Below are positions 2-36,898 of a stretch of 36,898 bases of DNA, in pieces. This DNA is from a virus (taxonomy: Duplodnaviria > Caudoviricetes). The stretch lies in IMG/VR virus record IMGVR_UViG_3300038608_000010, positions 1 to 36,898 of that record; one strand, written 5' to 3'. The notes under the pieces are model-generated. The model was not told the origin of the DNA, did not search any database, and saw nothing but the letters and a program-made list of their open reading frames with translations. Made by a program: the position numbers and the translations under genes. Position 1 is the first letter of the stretch. Each line of letters begins with the position of its first letter.

Positions 2-52
2 GAGACCATCCCCTGCACGGAGGCCGCGAAGGAGAGCATTCATGGGGCCTAA
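2..52 (+). CDS. 3' end of a truncated phage ORF (DUF6948-like C-terminus)
   Basis: Frame 2 reads ETIPCTEAAKESIHGA*. This resembles the IPCT-ending phage proteins that usually precede Gly-rich repeat ORFs. Stop overlaps the next ORF. Confidence 0.5.
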   Translation, partial: ETIPCTEAAKESIHGA

Positions 53-314
53 CGCCGGCTCCGGCGACGGCGACGGCTCCGGCTCCGGCTACGGCGACGG
101 CTCCGGCGACGGCTACGGCTACGGCTCCGGCTACGGCTCCGGCGACGGCTCCGGCTACGGCTACGGCTACGGCTACGTCTACGGCTACGGCTCCGGCTAC
201 GGCTACGGCTCCGGCTCCGGCTCCGGCTGCGGCTCCGGCTGCGGCTCCGGCTCCGGCGACGGCTCCGGCTATGGCGACGGCTGCGGCTACGGCTACGGCG
301 ACGGCTCCGGCTAA
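42..314 (+). CDS. Gly-rich (Gly-X)n low-complexity phage protein
   Basis: 90 aa of GSG/GYG/GDG/GCG repeats; AAGGAG upstream. Confidence 0.6.
   Translation: MGPNAGSGDGDGSGSGYGDGSGDGYGYGSGYGSGDGSGYGYGYGYVYGYGSGYGYGSGSGSGCGSGCGSGSGDGSGYGDGCGYGYGDGSG
54..311. repeat. degenerate tandem hexamer GGC-NNC (GGCTCC/GGCTAC/GGCGAC/GGCTGC)
   Basis: Directly visible tandem repeat, about 43 units. Confidence 0.9.
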
Positions 315-2354: not shown

Positions 2355-2485
2355 TCTGGCTCGCCATTCTCCTCGCCCCTCTGGCCTACCTCCTGCTGAC
2401 GCTGGCGATCCGCTGGTGCGTGGGGAGGCAGCACCGCGGAGACATGAGCGCCGCAGAGTTGCTGAACGGCAGAGACGCGAGATGA
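2351..2485 (+). CDS. small membrane protein
   Basis: MIWLAILLAPLAYLLLTLAIRWCVG...; ATGA overlaps at both ends; not in the ORF track. Confidence 0.55.
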   Translation: MIWLAILLAPLAYLLLTLAIRWCVGRQHRGDMSAAELLNGRDAR

Positions 2486-2820
2486 ACAATCTCAACAACG
2501 ACGACCACGAACCGAAGAACGCCGCCTATTGGACGAGGCAGTGTAGGAAGTTGACTGCCGAGGTTGAGCGGCTGACGCACGACGAGCGCCGCCTCAACTG
2601 GCTGGCCGACCCGAGCAACCTCATCGGTTACGTGCAACTGCCGACCGCGTGTGTTGAGGCACACTCGACCGACATGCGGGCGGCGATTGATGCGGCCATG
2701 GTGATTGGCGACATTTATGGACGACATCGACGGAGCGATGAAGTGACGCCCGGGCCTTGCCCGGCATTGACGCCCAACGCCCAGGTTAAGGCCGCGCCGG
2801 GCACCGGCGTCGAGCCTTGA
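2482..2820 (+). CDS. hypothetical phage protein ending inside attC1
   Basis: MNNLNND...; DERRLNWL and MRAAIDAAM are common in phage early ORFs; C-terminus TPNAQVKAAPGTGVEP is encoded by the attC. Confidence 0.7.
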   Translation: MNNLNNDDHEPKNAAYWTRQCRKLTAEVERLTHDERRLNWLADPSNLIGYVQLPTACVEAHSTDMRAAIDAAMVIGDIYGRHRRSDEVTPGPCPALTPNAQVKAAPGTGVEP

Positions 2821-2834
2821 ACCTGTTGTTATGC
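2772..2834 (-). repeat. attC: attC recombination site 1 (63 bp)
   Basis: - strand: GCATAAC-AACAG-GTTCAAGG...CCTTAAC-CTGGGC-GTTGGGC. This is R'' (RYYYAAC-like), 5-bp spacer, L'' with extra base, GC-rich stem, L', 6-bp spacer, R' (GTTRRRY). Confidence 0.9.
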
Positions 2835-2989
2835 CGGCTCGCCTCAATAGCGCTGCTGCGGACGAACTTCGTATAGGAGACGCCAGCAGCATCCGCTGTG
2901 CGCTGGATGGATTCACGCTCCGACTCAGTAAAGCCGATCTGGAGCTTGTAGGACTGCCGTTCGTCGGCTGGTTTCTGGGGGCGTGCCAT
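2786..2989 (-). CDS. small ribbon-helix-helix-like DNA-binding protein (MobC/DUF1778-like) in cassette A
   Basis: MARPQKPADERQSYKLQIGFTESERESIQRTADAAGVSYTKFVRSSAIEAS has an RHH strand-helix-helix pattern; stop lies in attC1. Confidence 0.7.
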   Translation of the reverse strand: MARPQKPADERQSYKLQIGFTESERESIQRTADAAGVSYTKFVRSSAIEASRHNNRFKARRRCPARP

Positions 2990-2996
2990 TTGGTTA

Positions 2997-3032
2997 TTGC
3001 ATGTATGGAAATGTGCCGTTATGATACATGCA
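2997..3032 (+). promoter_or_regulatory. sigma70-type promoter with overlapping inverted-repeat operator
   Basis: TTGCAT (2997-3002), 17 bp, TATGAT (3020-3025); inverted repeat TGCATGTAT (2998-3006) / ATACATGCA (3024-3032). Confidence 0.75.
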
Positions 3033-3049
3033 CAAACGGAGCACGGCAA

Positions 3050-3370
3050 ATGGCAAACGCACTCTACTTCACCACGATCAACGGCGAGCCGGTCTAGCTT
3101 CAGAATGTCTACTACACCGCTCGCGACCCGGCCAAGCGCGCCGGCTATGAAGCCAGTCTCGGCAAGTCGGAGACTGGCCGCAGTGTGCGGTCGGACTCTT
3201 TCTCGCTGGCTGTTGGTGCCGTGCCTGATGGCCGGAAATTTGAGGCCGACCGTCTGATTTTCCGCAAGGCGGCACCTAGCAACCACAAGTGCGGCGCAAA
3301 GTGCCGCCACGCCAAGGGCGGCCAGTGCGAATGCGAGTGCGGCGGTAAGTACCACGGAGCGGGCGGATGA
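3050..3370 (+). pseudogene. Cys-rich (zinc-binding-like) protein interrupted by an in-frame TAG at 3095-3097
   Basis: GGAG RBS and ATG 3050; MANALYFTTINGEPV* continues in frame LQNVYY...HKCGAKCRHAKGGQCECECGGKYHG. Confidence 0.65.
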
Positions 3371-3633
3371 CAGCCCTTCGTGCCGCTATGCACGAAGTTG
3401 CCGAACGCGCGCGCCGCCAAGGTAAGCCGAACTGCTACTACTGGTCGGCGGTTTGGTGGCGCCTGCATGCTAAGGAAAGCGCTAACAATGCGGAGTGCCG
3501 CCGCTACAGTGAGAACCAGCGGCGTCTGTTTTTTGACATGATGAACCGCCCAGAGCATTACACGAGCCGACAACGCCCTGAAAGCGACACCGACTGGCAG
3601 TGGTCCTCCATAGGAGTTGCGAAAGATGCTTGA
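3367..3633 (+). CDS. hypothetical protein (cassette A)
   Basis: ATGA overlap with the upstream ORF. Confidence 0.6.
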   Translation: MTALRAAMHEVAERARRQGKPNCYYWSAVWWRLHAKESANNAECRRYSENQRRLFFDMMNRPEHYTSRQRPESDTDWQWSSIGVAKDA

Positions 3634-3991
3634 ACTAATAGTTATACCACCGGTACGCGACCCATGGTCTACACCGAAGAAGCGTAGCCGCCTCCGCGCG
3701 CTGGCACTGCGGAAGTGCCCAACACCGGCAGACATCCGCTGGTATCCGCAACTGCCGCCGGCTGACGCTTCCGTGTGGGCGATCTTCAGAAAGGGCCATT
3801 GCGGCGAGGTTGTTTTCTTGGGGGGGTGGACTTACAAGTCCGGCAGCGAGTTTCTATACGACATGCCGATTGCATGGACGCTCTTGAGGCATAACGCCAA
3901 GGTTCAGGCGCGTCCTTGTCGCCAGAAGGGCGGCAAGGACGTCGCACTGGAACCTGTTGTTGGGCGACAGCGAACGGAGGAAGGGGCATGA
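3626..3991 (+). CDS. hypothetical protein (cassette A) reading through attC2
   Basis: AGGAG upstream; C-terminus HNAKVQARPCRQKGGKDVALEPVVGR is attC-encoded. Confidence 0.6.
   Translation: MLELIVIPPVRDPWSTPKKRSRLRALALRKCPTPADIRWYPQLPPADASVWAIFRKGHCGEVVFLGGWTYKSGSEFLYDMPIAWTLLRHNAKVQARPCRQKGGKDVALEPVVGRQRTEEGA
3889..3965 (-). repeat. attC: attC recombination site 2 (77 bp)
   Basis: - strand: GCCCAAC-AACAG-GTTCCAG...GTCCTTG/CAAGGAC stem...CTGAAC-CTTGGC-GTTATGC. Confidence 0.9.
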
Positions 3992-4269
3992 ACGAGCCTG
4001 TTCGACACGAGGACAACGAATTTTCCGGCACCTGCCCGACGTGCGGCCAAGCCTACGCCGGCCGGGAGATCGACCGGCTGCGCCAGGCTATAGTTGACGC
4101 AATCGAAGCTGGAGAAGATGGTGATTGGCAGAGCGCCCGCCGTGGATTGATGGCCGCTTTGACGCCCAACGCCCAGGTTCAGCCGCGGCCTTGCTGCCCG
4201 AAGGGCGGCAAGGACGTCGCGCTGGAACCTGTTGTTGGGCGACACGGAACGGAAGGTGAAGCGCGATGA
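3988..4269 (+). CDS. hypothetical protein (cassette B, CPTC motif) reading through attC3
   Basis: GGAGGAAGGGG before ATG 3988; ATGA overlaps at both ends. Confidence 0.65.
   Translation: MNEPVRHEDNEFSGTCPTCGQAYAGREIDRLRQAIVDAIEAGEDGDWQSARRGLMAALTPNAQVQPRPCCPKGGKDVALEPVVGRHGTEGEAR
4164..4240 (-). repeat. attC: attC recombination site 3 (77 bp, close copy of attC2)
   Basis: - strand: GCCCAAC-AACAG-GTTCCAG...CTGAAC-CTGGGC-GTTGGGC. Confidence 0.9.
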
Positions 4270-4373
4270 AAGTGAAACTCACGAAAGAGTGGTGCGAACG
4301 CATGGCAAAGGCTGAAGGTAGCGCGAGCATTGGGGCTGGACACGGAGTCAAGGCGCTGCAAGAACCCCCATGA
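4266..4373 (+). CDS. small hypothetical protein (cassette C)
   Basis: MKVKLTKEWCERMAKAEG...; ATGA overlaps at both ends; not in the ORF track. Confidence 0.55.
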   Translation: MKVKLTKEWCERMAKAEGSASIGAGHGVKALQEPP

Positions 4374-4600
4374 GCGAAGAACCAGCTGGCACGGTACTGC
4401 TCGGCAGCATCGAGAAGCGTGCCTATCTCTACGTTGTGCAGACTTGTGAGCGCATGCGGTTGGAGCACGCGAACGCACGCCAGCACGGCATTCAAGACCC
4501 GCACGATTACGTGTTCGTGCTGGACGGGCATAGGTTCGAGATTTCGCATGAAGGTCTGTTGAGTGCGCTGCTCAACGCACGCGCGCAGGATTTGATATGA
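4370..4600 (+). CDS. hypothetical protein (cassette C)
   Basis: 76 aa; translationally coupled at both ends. Confidence 0.6.
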   Translation: MSEEPAGTVLLGSIEKRAYLYVVQTCERMRLEHANARQHGIQDPHDYVFVLDGHRFEISHEGLLSALLNARAQDLI

Positions 4601-4650
4601 CGCCGAACGCCGAGGTTAACCGGGCCTCTGGCCCCAAGGAAAAGCCATGA
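4597..4650 (+). CDS. 17-codon coupling mini-ORF across the left arm of attC4
   Basis: MTPNAEVNRASGPKEKP*; ATGA overlap with 4370-4600 and with 4647-4862. Confidence 0.45.
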   Translation: MTPNAEVNRASGPKEKP

Positions 4651-4704
4651 ATGAAAAGACGAACGCCGCAGGGCCAGAGGGTCCGGTTGAACCGCTGGTT
4701 GGGC
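4602..4704 (-). repeat. attC: attC recombination site 4 (103 bp)
   Basis: - strand: GCCCAAC-CAGCG-GTTCAACC...CCTCTGGCCC/GGGCCAGAGG stem...GGTTAAC-CTCGGC-GTTCGGC. Confidence 0.9.
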
Positions 4705-4862
4705 GACCACGCGCATGGCTGCTGGAGCCGAAAAAACAGAGATACCCAGATCGATATTTGATCCGTGGCTGCTACACAACAGAGCCGACGAAGGAACAGC
4801 TTGAAATAGCTGAACTGGACGGCGACCGTTATGTGCCGCTCTACGAACTGACGCCCAACTAG
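4647..4862 (+). CDS. hypothetical protein (cassette D); starts in the attC4 loop, stops in the attI-like site
   Basis: AAGGA RBS and ATG lie in the attC variable region; ends YELTPN-TAG. Confidence 0.65.
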   Translation: MNEKTNAAGPEGPVEPLVGRPRAWLLEPKKQRYPDRYLIRGCYTTEPTKEQLEIAELDGDRYVPLYELTPN

Positions 4863-4871
4863 GTGTTATCC
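4853..4871 (-). other. attI: attI-like simple recombination site
   Basis: - strand GGATAAC-ACCTA-GTTGGGC: L box, 5-bp spacer and GTTRRRY R box, located at the head of the attC array in the same orientation. Confidence 0.7.
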
Positions 4872-4917
4872 GACACGTGTAGTACGTACTACCACCCGGA
4901 ATGGAAGGAAATAGAAC

Positions 4918-5082
4918 ATGACCCACGACGAACTGCAGGCGGAGTCAAGGCGATTGTGTGGCCGTTGCTCTGCTGGCCGGCCCGTCAGTGTCGATGATCT
5001 TGCAGGCCACATCGCCCGCCTCGCCGAGGCCCTGGAGCCGGCGCTCGCTGCATTGTCCGCGTATGCGGACGAGACCAACTAG
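4918..5082 (+). CDS. small hypothetical protein
   Basis: GGAAGGA RBS; MTHDELQAESRRLCGRC...ETN*; not in the ORF track. Confidence 0.6.
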   Translation: MTHDELQAESRRLCGRCSAGRPVSVDDLAGHIARLAEALEPALAALSAYADETN

Positions 5083-5085
5083 GCG

Positions 5086-5208
5086 ATGGATGAGCGCGGC
5101 ATCCGGAGGATGTGGATGGAGCCTGATAGTCATACACCAGACTGTTACGCTGGGTATGAACTCGCGCAGAAGGCCATCGCCGAGCAGAAGGAGAATCAGC
5201 CATGCTGA
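5086..5208 (+). CDS. small hypothetical protein
   Basis: MDERGIRRMWMEPD...; fills the gap and overlaps the next start. Confidence 0.4.
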   Translation: MDERGIRRMWMEPDSHTPDCYAGYELAQKAIAEQKENQPC

Positions 5209-6620: not shown

Positions 6621-6904
6621 TCACAAACGAGAGATACCTGCAGCTGGCGCTGGAGTGCGACGGTGACCCAGACCAGTGGGCCATCACTGAAGATGACCTC
6701 CTCGCCCTCTGCGCCCGCGTCGCCACCGAGGCCCGGGCGGAGCAGATCAGGATAGATGCGGGGATTTGTGATGCGCTGTACAACAAACGCGATGGCCGGA
6801 ATCTGACAGATCAGGAGCAAGGCGTTCTGAACGGGTTGGCGCAGGCCGAAGATTCGATCCTCGCCCAGCTCCCCGAGAACGAACGGGCGGGAGGTGAGGG
6901 ATGA
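6617..6904 (+). CDS. hypothetical phage protein
   Basis: ATGA overlaps at both ends. Confidence 0.65.
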
Positions 6905-7086
6905 GCAAGCAGAAACCGGAGCAGAAGCCGCTCTATTGCAGCTTCTGCGGCCTATCGGATAACGAGGTCGCGGCGCTGATCGCGGGGCCATGCGTCTACA
7001 TCTGTAATAAGTGCGTGGCGGTGTGCTTTGACATCTTGGCCGACCACGCCAGCACTCTGTCGCCGAAAAAGGAGCATACGCCATGA
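6901..7086 (+). CDS. ClpX C4-type zinc finger protein
   Basis: YCSFCG...[16 protein letters not shown]. Confidence 0.9.
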
Positions 7087-36075: not shown

Positions 36076-36522
36076 GGACGTTTCCTGGAGGGGTCCCGTA
36101 TAGCGCGGCAGGCATCTTGTTCGAGGCTGGCCCTATGCTTGCTACGGGGCCACGGATTGTTTCAGCCTCTATCCCACGGTCATCCGCTTACGATCAGGCA
36201 GCCGCTGTTATCCGCGCAGCCTGAAAGGCGGATGGGCTTACAGCAAAAGAGGATGGTTACAGCAAATGACAGCTAATCCGGCATTGCGCCAGCTTTGACC
36301 CCGACCACGTATGCCTTTAGGCATAAAGGATTTCCTTTGGTGAAACCGAGGCCCGTTGGCTTTGGGCTACATGTCTACGGATGGGACGTATTCATGCAAC
36401 TTGAAAGTCACGGTTTCCCAAAGGAAACCCTTTCCCACCTACCCTGACAGAGCGGTGCCACCCGCTTCTGCTGGCTATCAATAGCCTATTTCTTCTCGTG
36501 CATCCTGCACGCCGTGTAAATC

Positions 36523-36795
36523 TTACTTGCGCCGTTTGTACTTTGCAAGGTTTCGCTTCGCCCGCTTCTCGACCCGCTTGGCCGAGTCCTCGATCTGCCG
36601 CGCCGCCTGCAGGATCAGCGGCTCGGGAATCTGGAGCTGGTGGACCATGGCCGCGCCCAGCACCTTCAGCGAGGTATCCAGCGACAGCGGGTCGGGCCAG
36701 ATGGAGACGGCCTGCTGGGAGATGCCAAGAGCTTTGGCGGTCTCCTTCTGCAGGCCCGTGGCAGACAGCAATTCGATAGCATCGGCTTTGCGCAT
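36523..36795 (-). CDS. Cro-like HTH repressor
   Basis: QKETAKALGISQQAVSIWPD HTH; first gene of the leftward operon. Confidence 0.85.
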   Translation of the reverse strand: MRKADAIELLSATGLQKETAKALGISQQAVSIWPDPLSLDTSLKVLGAAMVHQLQIPEPLILQAARQIEDSAKRVEKRAKRNLAKYKRRK

Positions 36796-36801
36796 GGGGC
36801 C

Positions 36802-36829
36802 ATTGTACAGGGTATAGCGCGCTTGTCTA
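36802..36829 (-). promoter_or_regulatory. leftward promoter, probably giving a leaderless cro mRNA
   Basis: TAGACA, 16 bp, TACAAT, then 6 nt to ATG with no RBS. Confidence 0.6.
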
Positions 36830-36830
36830 G

Positions 36831-36859
36831 TTGTACTTTGGTAAAGAGTGCTGTACTAT
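36831..36859 (+). promoter_or_regulatory. rightward sigma70-type promoter
   Basis: TTGTAC, 17 bp, TACTAT; followed by AAAGGA and a GTG at the window end. Confidence 0.7.
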
Positions 36860-36898
36860 GGCGTCACTGGATCAACAACCAAAGGAAAGCGCGTGAAT

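Follow-up and report, generated by a model that had tools for sequence, protein, structure and literature searches.

A Reversed, Frame-Locked Cluster of Predicted attC Sites Among the Early Genes of a P22-Like Soil Phage

Introduction

How could the recombination sites of integrons have come to stand in the early operon of a phage, and what would they be doing there, when the genes around them are read from the opposite strand to the one expected? The question is raised by positions 2772 to 4871 of the virus record IMGVR_UViG_3300038608_000010 (Duplodnaviria; Caudoviricetes), a linear record, 91% complete, whose entire length of 36,898 bases is the stretch that was analysed (the window). An earlier note, made from the letters alone, had described this segment as an integron-type cassette array, that is, four attC sites headed by an attI-like site, with no integrase in the window, and had proposed that the phage keeps a recombination platform for its accessory early genes, served by an IntI from the host or encoded elsewhere.

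The reading that we favor, at a probability of roughly 0.7, is that of a four-unit cluster of attC sites lacking an integrase (CALIN), reversed and locked into one reading frame; this cluster, situated among the early genes of a P22-like phage from soil, was likely built, and is likely still editable, by an IntI acting in trans. The reversed genes and the fixed-frame translation across the sites had escaped the earlier note, and they are the more unusual feature.

Results

Anatomy of the Sites

The four imperfect palindromes lie exactly where they had been placed, on the minus strand, in the order R''-5-L'' (with the extra base) ... L'-6-R'. The full attC architecture claimed for them holds as far as this layout is concerned, in all four, but two of the four R' boxes (GTTGGGC, GTTATGC, GTTGGGC and GTTCGGC for sites 1 to 4) depart from GTTRRRY by one base. 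The sites and the simple site that heads them are as follows.

2772-2834, minus: attC site 1, 63 bp; R'' GCATAAC, R' GTTGGGC; 38.6 bits
3889-3965, minus: attC site 2, 77 bp; R'' GCCCAAC, R' GTTATGC; 41.5 bits
4164-4240, minus: attC site 3, 77 bp; 88% identical to site 2; 55.0 bits
4602-4704, minus: attC site 4, 103 bp; 50.0 bits
4853-4871, minus: simple site heading the array, GGATAAC-ACCTA-GTTGGGC, 19 bp; candidate attI or attG-type site

The scores are those of a covariance model of our own (R1), which matches the four sites at their exact ends and on the minus strand, its next-best match in the window reaching 11.8 bits. R1 was built from 42 of 50 attC sites that a scanner had located in bacterial loci and in one plasmid; anchor sites that had been matched by pattern did not enter it, and eight sites were omitted, among them the pair from L136 that comes closest to site 1. 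It is not the model of IntegronFinder, and since its training loci were reached with a pattern derived from the window it is not fully independent of it. R1 recovers three sites in TJE1 and four in ctTUS972, matching the counts in Qi et al. (PMC9892861), and, being GC-rich, misses AT-rich sites, none being found in Polaribacter phage P12002L.

A strict structural scan of the window gives four matches, every one of them on the minus strand and within 2772-4704; 100 dinucleotide shuffles give on average 0.32 matches per window and never more than 2. When folded as DNA, the bottom strands form predicted hairpins of -19 to -33 kcal/mol with paired L boxes in all four sites; pairing of the R boxes is complete in sites 3 and 4 and partial in sites 1 and 2, which are chimeric. 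Judged by these features the four palindromes are attC sites of integron type, and four of them, co-oriented within 1.9 kb, make a CALIN; the adjoining intI that defines a complete integron is absent from the record. In an Rfam scan of the window attC was not among the matches, and no relevant family appeared.

As to the head site, the attI-like element first described is present with its layout, but it scores only 8.1 bits with R1, and AAC-N5-GTT is a common motif, occurring 11 times in the window, four times inside attC sites and six times elsewhere; a scan with the head-site pattern gave seven matches, all in one unrelated phage and inside a gene, and no true relative. Its right half is a perfect complement of R'' of site 4 and has TTGGGCGTCA in common with two other unit starts. 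Its 5-bp spacer resembles those of attI candidates upstream of intI genes and provides the TAG stop of the gene at 4647-4862. The proposal is thus half supported: the right half is meaningful, and the left half is only a candidate attI. The site may be an attI or a secondary site of attG type; it fits the GTT of the GWT consensus, and if it were joined to the distal flank a symmetric empty site would result, in which the gene at 2482 would end in L-T-P-N-stop. Just outside it, at 4879-4892, stands a perfect 14-bp palindrome, GTAGTACGTACTAC, with ACACGTGT before it, a possible protein-binding site.

Orientation and Reading Frame

Cassette genes normally lie on the top strand of attC and end at their own attC. 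In the window the top strand of the sites is the minus strand, and the cargo and flank genes, with one exception, lie on the plus strand, that is, on the attC bottom strand. The unit lengths previously given (1117, 275, 438 and 251 bp) are correct, and the units and the distal flank hold the following features.

2482-2820, plus: flank gene, entering site 1 in frame (L-T-P-N-A-Q-V), stop in L''; phrog_37882, E 1.3e-5
2786-2989, minus: unit 1, predicted ribbon-helix-helix (RHH) regulator, NikA/TacA-like, 67 aa; PF21983, E 6.7e-6, just under the cut-off
2997-3025, plus: unit 1, candidate promoter TTGCAT-17-TATGAT, read from the sequence
3049-3021, minus: unit 1, candidate promoter TTGCCG-17-TATCAT, weak (one found against 0.7 expected in shuffles)
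2998-3006 / 3024-3032: 9-bp inverted repeat, candidate operator overlapping the divergent candidate promoters, read from the sequence
3050-3370, plus: unit 1, Cys/His-rich phage gene (from its translation), internal TAG at 3095-3097
3367-3633, plus: unit 1, gene, 47% identity in L329 and L335
3626-3991, plus: unit 1, open reading frame (ORF), start uncertain, in frame through site 2, stopping on the next start (ATGA)
3988-4269, plus: unit 2, small gene with a CxxC motif, in frame through site 3, stopping on the next start
4266-4373, plus: unit 3, 35-aa ORF (translation)
4370-4600, plus: unit 3, 76-aa gene, 16 homologues, stop overlapping the 17-aa ORF
4597-4650, plus: unit 3, 17-aa ORF extending into site 4
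4647-4862, plus: unit 4, gene with its N-terminus from attC site 4, a 49-residue core, and its C-terminus (L-T-P-N-stop) from the head site

The strand of these units rests on homologues, which are known for the plus-strand genes 3050-3370, 3367-3633, 4370-4600 and 4647-4862, and on stops that overlap the next starts in the ATGA manner at 3367, 3626, 3988, 4266, 4370, 4597 and 4647; the longest-ORF test that was applied elsewhere fails on them. All five R' boxes in the window (5/5) read as x-x-N, the AAC being an in-frame Asn codon. The gene that follows site 4 on the plus strand has its ATG (4647), together with a predicted Shine-Dalgarno sequence, in the loop of that site, where it starts behind AGGAAAAGCC.

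The same tendency is found in other viruses. A matching pattern led to 31 viral loci on 29 contigs, from which duplicates were removed, and in the longest-ORF test 26 of the 41 viral units are reversed, two canonical and 13 unclear, as against 5, 44 and 12 of 61 bacterial units in 80 loci with long flanks (Fisher p 2e-13, the units not being independent). Flanks long enough for the frame to be followed were available at 65 viral sites; frame 0 enters 26 of these and another frame one (26/27 read-ins), the rest consisting of 16 where the frame stops at the TAA of the R box, 19 where it stops before the site and three without an ORF; on bacterial bottom strands the 42 read-ins divide into 23 in frame 0 and 8 and 11 in the other two. 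A Shine-Dalgarno sequence with an ATG inside the site, on the bottom strand, occurs in 11/68 viral and 2/189 bacterial sites.

The RHH gene is the exception, the sole cargo gene in canonical orientation: it enters site 1 and stops in L', so that two convergent genes terminate inside that site, and it diverges from a candidate promoter within unit 1.

What is carried in this orientation is, to judge by its relatives, phage-type DNA. The gene at 3050 has 24 homologues of 91-114 aa, the best of which is 89% identical and intact, and its premature TAG stands where the closest homologues carry Gln or Pro, so it is likely a pseudogene in this phage; the four contig runs show no variant letter. Its Atlas clusters are mostly viral, and the family is common in phages and mostly not bound to attC: R1 matches were found at 0/80 viral loci (best 80 of 110) and 3/80 metagenome loci (best 80 of 343), both counts being lower bounds as AT-rich sites are missed. 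The pair formed by genes 3050 and 3367 is adjacent without attC in L329 and L335. The ORF at 3626-3991 matches no family in PHROGs or Pfam. The gene at 3988 has no homologue besides itself, with Atlas leads below 0.9; a tblastn match in L209 was set aside, as what is shared is an attC read in frame and not a gene. For the function of the cargo, Pfam, PHROGs and Atlas give nothing beyond the RHH match.

Unit 4 is of particular interest with regard to the origin of cassettes. Over its core, G19-E67, the gene product shares 67% identity with residues 13-61 of a protein of 123 aa, and its homology to two longer proteins is limited to residues 19-67, from R'' to just before the head site. This fits the capture of a gene fragment between att sites, although the homologues may themselves be mosaics.

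The Crossover Footprint

If the units had entered as circles, their R boxes should match better when each unit is closed on itself than in the array, where R'' and R' are mismatched at sites 1, 2 and 4. Closing the units at G|TT lowers the mismatches from 5 to 1: over the three units between attC sites 4 become 1, and in unit 4, as read from the sequence, the single mismatch disappears. Closed unit 1 gives GCATAAC/GTTATGC, a perfect pair; in other words, R' of site 2 pairs with R'' of site 1 and thereby marks the crossover. In sites 1 and 2 each L box finds its partner within the unit itself, whereas the outer bases of R' are those of the adjoining unit; the crossover is thereby placed in a 13-base span containing the AAC. 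The same closure lowers the mismatches from 59 to 23 in the 41 viral units and from 102 to 38 in the 61 bacterial ones. Read in this way, the drop on circularising is the footprint of insertion by IntI.

A homologue of gene 3050 also occurs with a helix-turn-helix-like gene in a reversed unit of a distant phage-like family of 43% GC. Among the five metagenome loci L309, L310, L311, L312 and L337 the identity stops at CTCTAAC| and is followed by four different sequences, L310 and L312 diverging again at the next AAC; these breakpoints are the pattern expected of IntI exchange at this point. L312 was considered as an empty site and dropped, since it looks like another short attC. L309-L312, L337 and L338 hold several reversed attC-like junctions whose neighbours differ exactly at the AAC, and would make a good natural set for the study of shuffling.

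The sites also have close kin among bacterial integrons. A blastn search of 2400-5100 against 72,556 plasmids gave 19 weak matches (E 0.06-0.8), and the two that were examined are the aadB attC of a class 1 integron (site 1, 77% over 70 bases) and the junction after blaVIM-2, in both of which the cassette genes lie on the strand that corresponds to the minus strand of the window. At least 120 GTDB loci match a pattern derived from the window sites, and among those listed 16 have a tblastn match to IntI1, five of them near full length. The best bacterial identities among 273 fetched sites are 89% for site 1 (attC of a Solimonas metagenome-assembled genome, MAG), 86% for site 2 and 91% for site 3 (attC of a Verrucomicrobiia MAG), whereas the seven best matches of site 4 in the same set are all viral, at 62-66%. 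Because the bacterial matches span several phyla, they cannot name a host. Site 3 is, moreover, 88% identical over 75 bp to an attC in the betaproteobacterial MAG G001; the array there has canonical genes, and a split intI lies 2.7 kb from this attC. That intI (G001:C36:221395-222017) adjoins the array in two pieces, model positions 1-130 and 224-314, and has probably been deleted or broken. Scans with exact patterns gave 0 matches in viral contigs and 0 in metagenome contigs, and 11 matches of a one-arm pattern were rejected, as the scanner found no attC in them.

Integrase and Phage Context

That the window holds no integrase is borne out: the tyrosine recombinase family PF00589 finds 0 in the record, as against 14/14 control genomes positive, and tblastn with IntI1 against the record is blank at E 1. 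Nor was a LexA-box-like motif of any of four types found in the vicinity of the array or of the early promoter. Of the 29 viral contigs with these sites, 4 encode a full-length IntI with 52-56% identity to IntI1; it lies beside attC in L062, L063/L064, L073 and L081, and in L063, L073 and L081 most units score as reversed.

The record was found in four DNA runs labelled soil metagenome, all from one study, and no RNA runs containing it are listed. Its P22-like structural set (terminase, portal, capsid, head closure and DNA ejection), together with an O-like replication gene, NinB, RusA and a cro-like gene on the minus strand, was recognized with PHROGs over 77 ORFs. The plus-strand early operon encodes, upstream of the array, two recombination genes.

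923-1606, plus: single-strand annealing protein, phrog_3290
1599-2354, plus: exonuclease, phrog_298

The annealing protein has relatives at 45 loci (39-80% identity), among which attC sites appear only in L007, a phage of 38% GC whose four attC (L007:5032-12395), in both orientations, flank the annealing gene on either side; the layout differs from that of the window, and the neighbouring ORFs are mostly on the attC bottom strand. A capsid search for relatives of the phage gave 0, and blastn of 2400-5100 against 50,697 phage records gave short chance matches only. Cultivated phages are less than 50% identical in terminase and capsid, so no host is assignable.

Some other features of the record may be listed here. 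At 36103-36226 (minus), downstream of the cro-like gene, there is a weak full-length match to the Rfam Betaproteobacteria-1 RNA (E 0.14; 28.1 bits, where the gathering threshold is 49.4), which hints weakly at a betaproteobacterial host. At 36523-36898 the cro-like gene diverges from the apparent start of the plus-strand operon, and no cI or integrase was found in the record; the phage may be lambdoid without a lysogeny module, or these genes may sit in the missing part. At 42-314 (plus), the start of the early operon, lies a low-complexity ORF of Gly-Ser-Tyr-Asp repeats (GSGYGDG-type), and contigs from two runs start at base 314, where the repeat ends. Finally, 6901-7086 (plus) encodes a stand-alone ClpX C4-type zinc finger (PF06689, E 2.8e-15), possibly a protease adaptor or decoy.

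Discussion

The array was most likely formed as follows. The starting target would have been GGATAAC-ACCTA-G|TTGGGCGTCA, the head site joined to the distal flank, at which IntI, recombining at G|TT, would have brought in each unit in circular form, the enzyme coming from the host chromosome or from a co-resident phage with intI. As the crossover falls inside an in-frame Asn codon, the arriving gene would keep its frame; it would take its last residues and its stop from whichever site follows, and the loop or far side of that site would supply the next start. Units would thus be gained, lost and reordered without untranslated gaps in the operon, which the phage's own early promoter would drive, with no need of a cassette promoter (Pc). 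The selective reason could be that poor translation of a cassette lowers expression downstream: such an effect of a poorly translated cassette on the next ones is described for class 1 arrays in PMC11511950, the link to the phage array being ours.

Several observations weigh against this reading. They concern: (i) the enzyme and its movement, as intI may lie in the missing part of the record; as no host, and with it no matching IntI, is assignable; as no excision joint or variant letter appears in the four runs, which exist as contigs only, come from one study, possibly the source of the record, and drop rare variants; and as the proposed comparison with relatives found no close relative of the phage and hence no content to compare at this locus; (ii) the state of the locus, where the premature stop of gene 3050 fits decay, and the head site has its low score and no relative found; (iii) and finally, the layout itself, given that the crude longest-ORF test calls one of the window's three units reversed (a tie) and two canonical, that the canonical RHH gene makes unit 1 mixed, and that the bacterial lean to frame 0 (23/42) may make the frame bias partly compositional. 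Neither check that the earlier note proposed on circles and relatives bore fruit, and what stands of its recombination platform is an IntI-type array with an insertion footprint and no intI in the record; that the array still moves is something we infer.

If the movement is past, the units would have been inserted by IntI once, in a phage whose present host has no active IntI, and the sites would persist as coding sequence and translational couplers. The missing intI, the contig runs without variant or joint, the stop in gene 3050 and the reading frames that overlap all sites speak for such a relic, which we nevertheless hold to be rather unlikely, because all four hairpins keep both extrahelical-base layouts at 39-55 bits, because sites 1-3 still match bacterial attC at 86-91% identity, as recent exchange would lead one to expect, and because rare variants would be dropped from contigs in any case. 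It is more doubtful still, and distinctly improbable, that the repeats, although derived from attC, serve as homology linkers for the phage's annealing protein and exonuclease, with short homologous swaps and no IntI. The position of those two genes just upstream, the 88% identity of sites 2 and 3 and the 10 bases common to the unit starts would agree with it, but the switch points at sites 1 and 2 are confined to the 13-base span around the AAC instead of being scattered over the repeat, sites 1 and 4 share only 49% identity, the identity among L309-L337 ends at the AAC with no homology past it, and hairpin symmetry would be needless.

Little probability can be given to the view that the block was taken whole from a bacterial chromosomal integron and stands in the operon by accident. 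Sites 1-3 do have close bacterial matches, and Vibrio phages have taken pieces of host integrons (PMC9892861), but the cargo families are of phage type, the genes are reversed, unlike 44/49 classifiable bacterial units, the genes on both flanks run in the same direction and in the same locked frame, and the nearest matches of site 4 are viral. As for chance palindromes or terminator-like repeats, which GC-rich DNA might suggest since it folds easily, hardly any weight is left for them: they are refuted by the shuffle scan (four co-oriented matches within 2 kb against 0.32 expected per window) and by the covariance scores, and the strand asymmetry and the identity to annotated class 1 integron junctions also oppose them.

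Returning to the frame-locked CALIN edited in trans, its reversed, one-frame layout turns a recombination site into a translational joint, here and in most of the viral arrays tested, and phages would thereby obtain an integrase-driven way to edit their early operons. The near-identical attC sites link the cassette pools of phages and bacteria, and, as the cargo is of phage type, the phage pool likely generates cassettes of its own, with attC sites common to both. The locus also bears on how cassettes arise, the cargo being ordinary phage DNA and one unit resembling a gene fragment cut at att boundaries. These views are bounded by the shortness of the array, by cargo without assigned function and by a mobility that is only deduced.

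One might go further and suppose, tentatively and with less than even confidence, that phages run an integron branch of their own, with reversed, frame-locked cassettes whose attC is also coding, in which IntI would shuffle protein parts as well as genes and in which unit 4 would have been caught at birth. If so, unit 4 would be a 49-residue piece from a longer phage gene that received its start from an attC loop and its stop from the insertion site, and phage early operons would be one birthplace of new cassettes.

Comparison With Known Systems

Integrons were regarded in the earlier note as rarely phage-borne, which overstates the case, as phage CALINs have been published: integron parts were reported in 21/10,705 phage genomes, and 5/6 sites recombined with IntI1, through the bottom strands of the phage attC (Qi, Rajabal, Ghaly, Tetu, Gillings 2023, PMC9892861). 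Those CALINs resemble the present one in being attC clusters without intI. The nearest in kind is ctTUS972 (MW202573), also P22-like, of ~35 kb, with four minus-strand attC among plus-strand early genes; its CALIN (L425, 2069-3738) is reversed relative to the annotated genes, and for it the accessible text mentions only multiple ORFs between the sites. The differences are that the available main text and supplement of PMC9892861 do not mention reversed genes or a fixed frame, that TJE1, its lead example, has the canonical orientation, and that the window cargo includes no methyltransferase.

With class 1 integron cassettes (IntI1, attI1; aadB, blaVIM-2, blaOXA-2-family) the window shares the attC anatomy and the crossover point, and its unit starts share GTTGGGCGTCAA with the OXA cassettes after aadB and VIM-2; it differs in having no intI, no attI1 direct repeats and no Pc, in its bottom-strand genes and in the absence of resistance genes. 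Environmental chromosomal integrons (the betaproteobacterium G001; Solimonas, Verrucomicrobiia and other MAGs) have attC 86-91% identical to sites 1-3, but their genes are on the top strand and intI often adjoins.

IntI also inserts cassettes at GWT sites outside integrons, which may found small CALINs (Loot et al., bioRxiv 10.1101/2022.09.11.507474). The attG sites, single attC sites lacking an integrase (SALINs) and small CALINs of that account resemble the window in that its head site fits the GTT; they differ in belonging to bacterial genomes, whereas here the target would be a symmetric AAC-N5-GTT in a phage operon and the cargo is of phage type. The literature covered, to which subscription journals mostly do not belong, yielded no paper on reversed, frame-locked phage cassettes.

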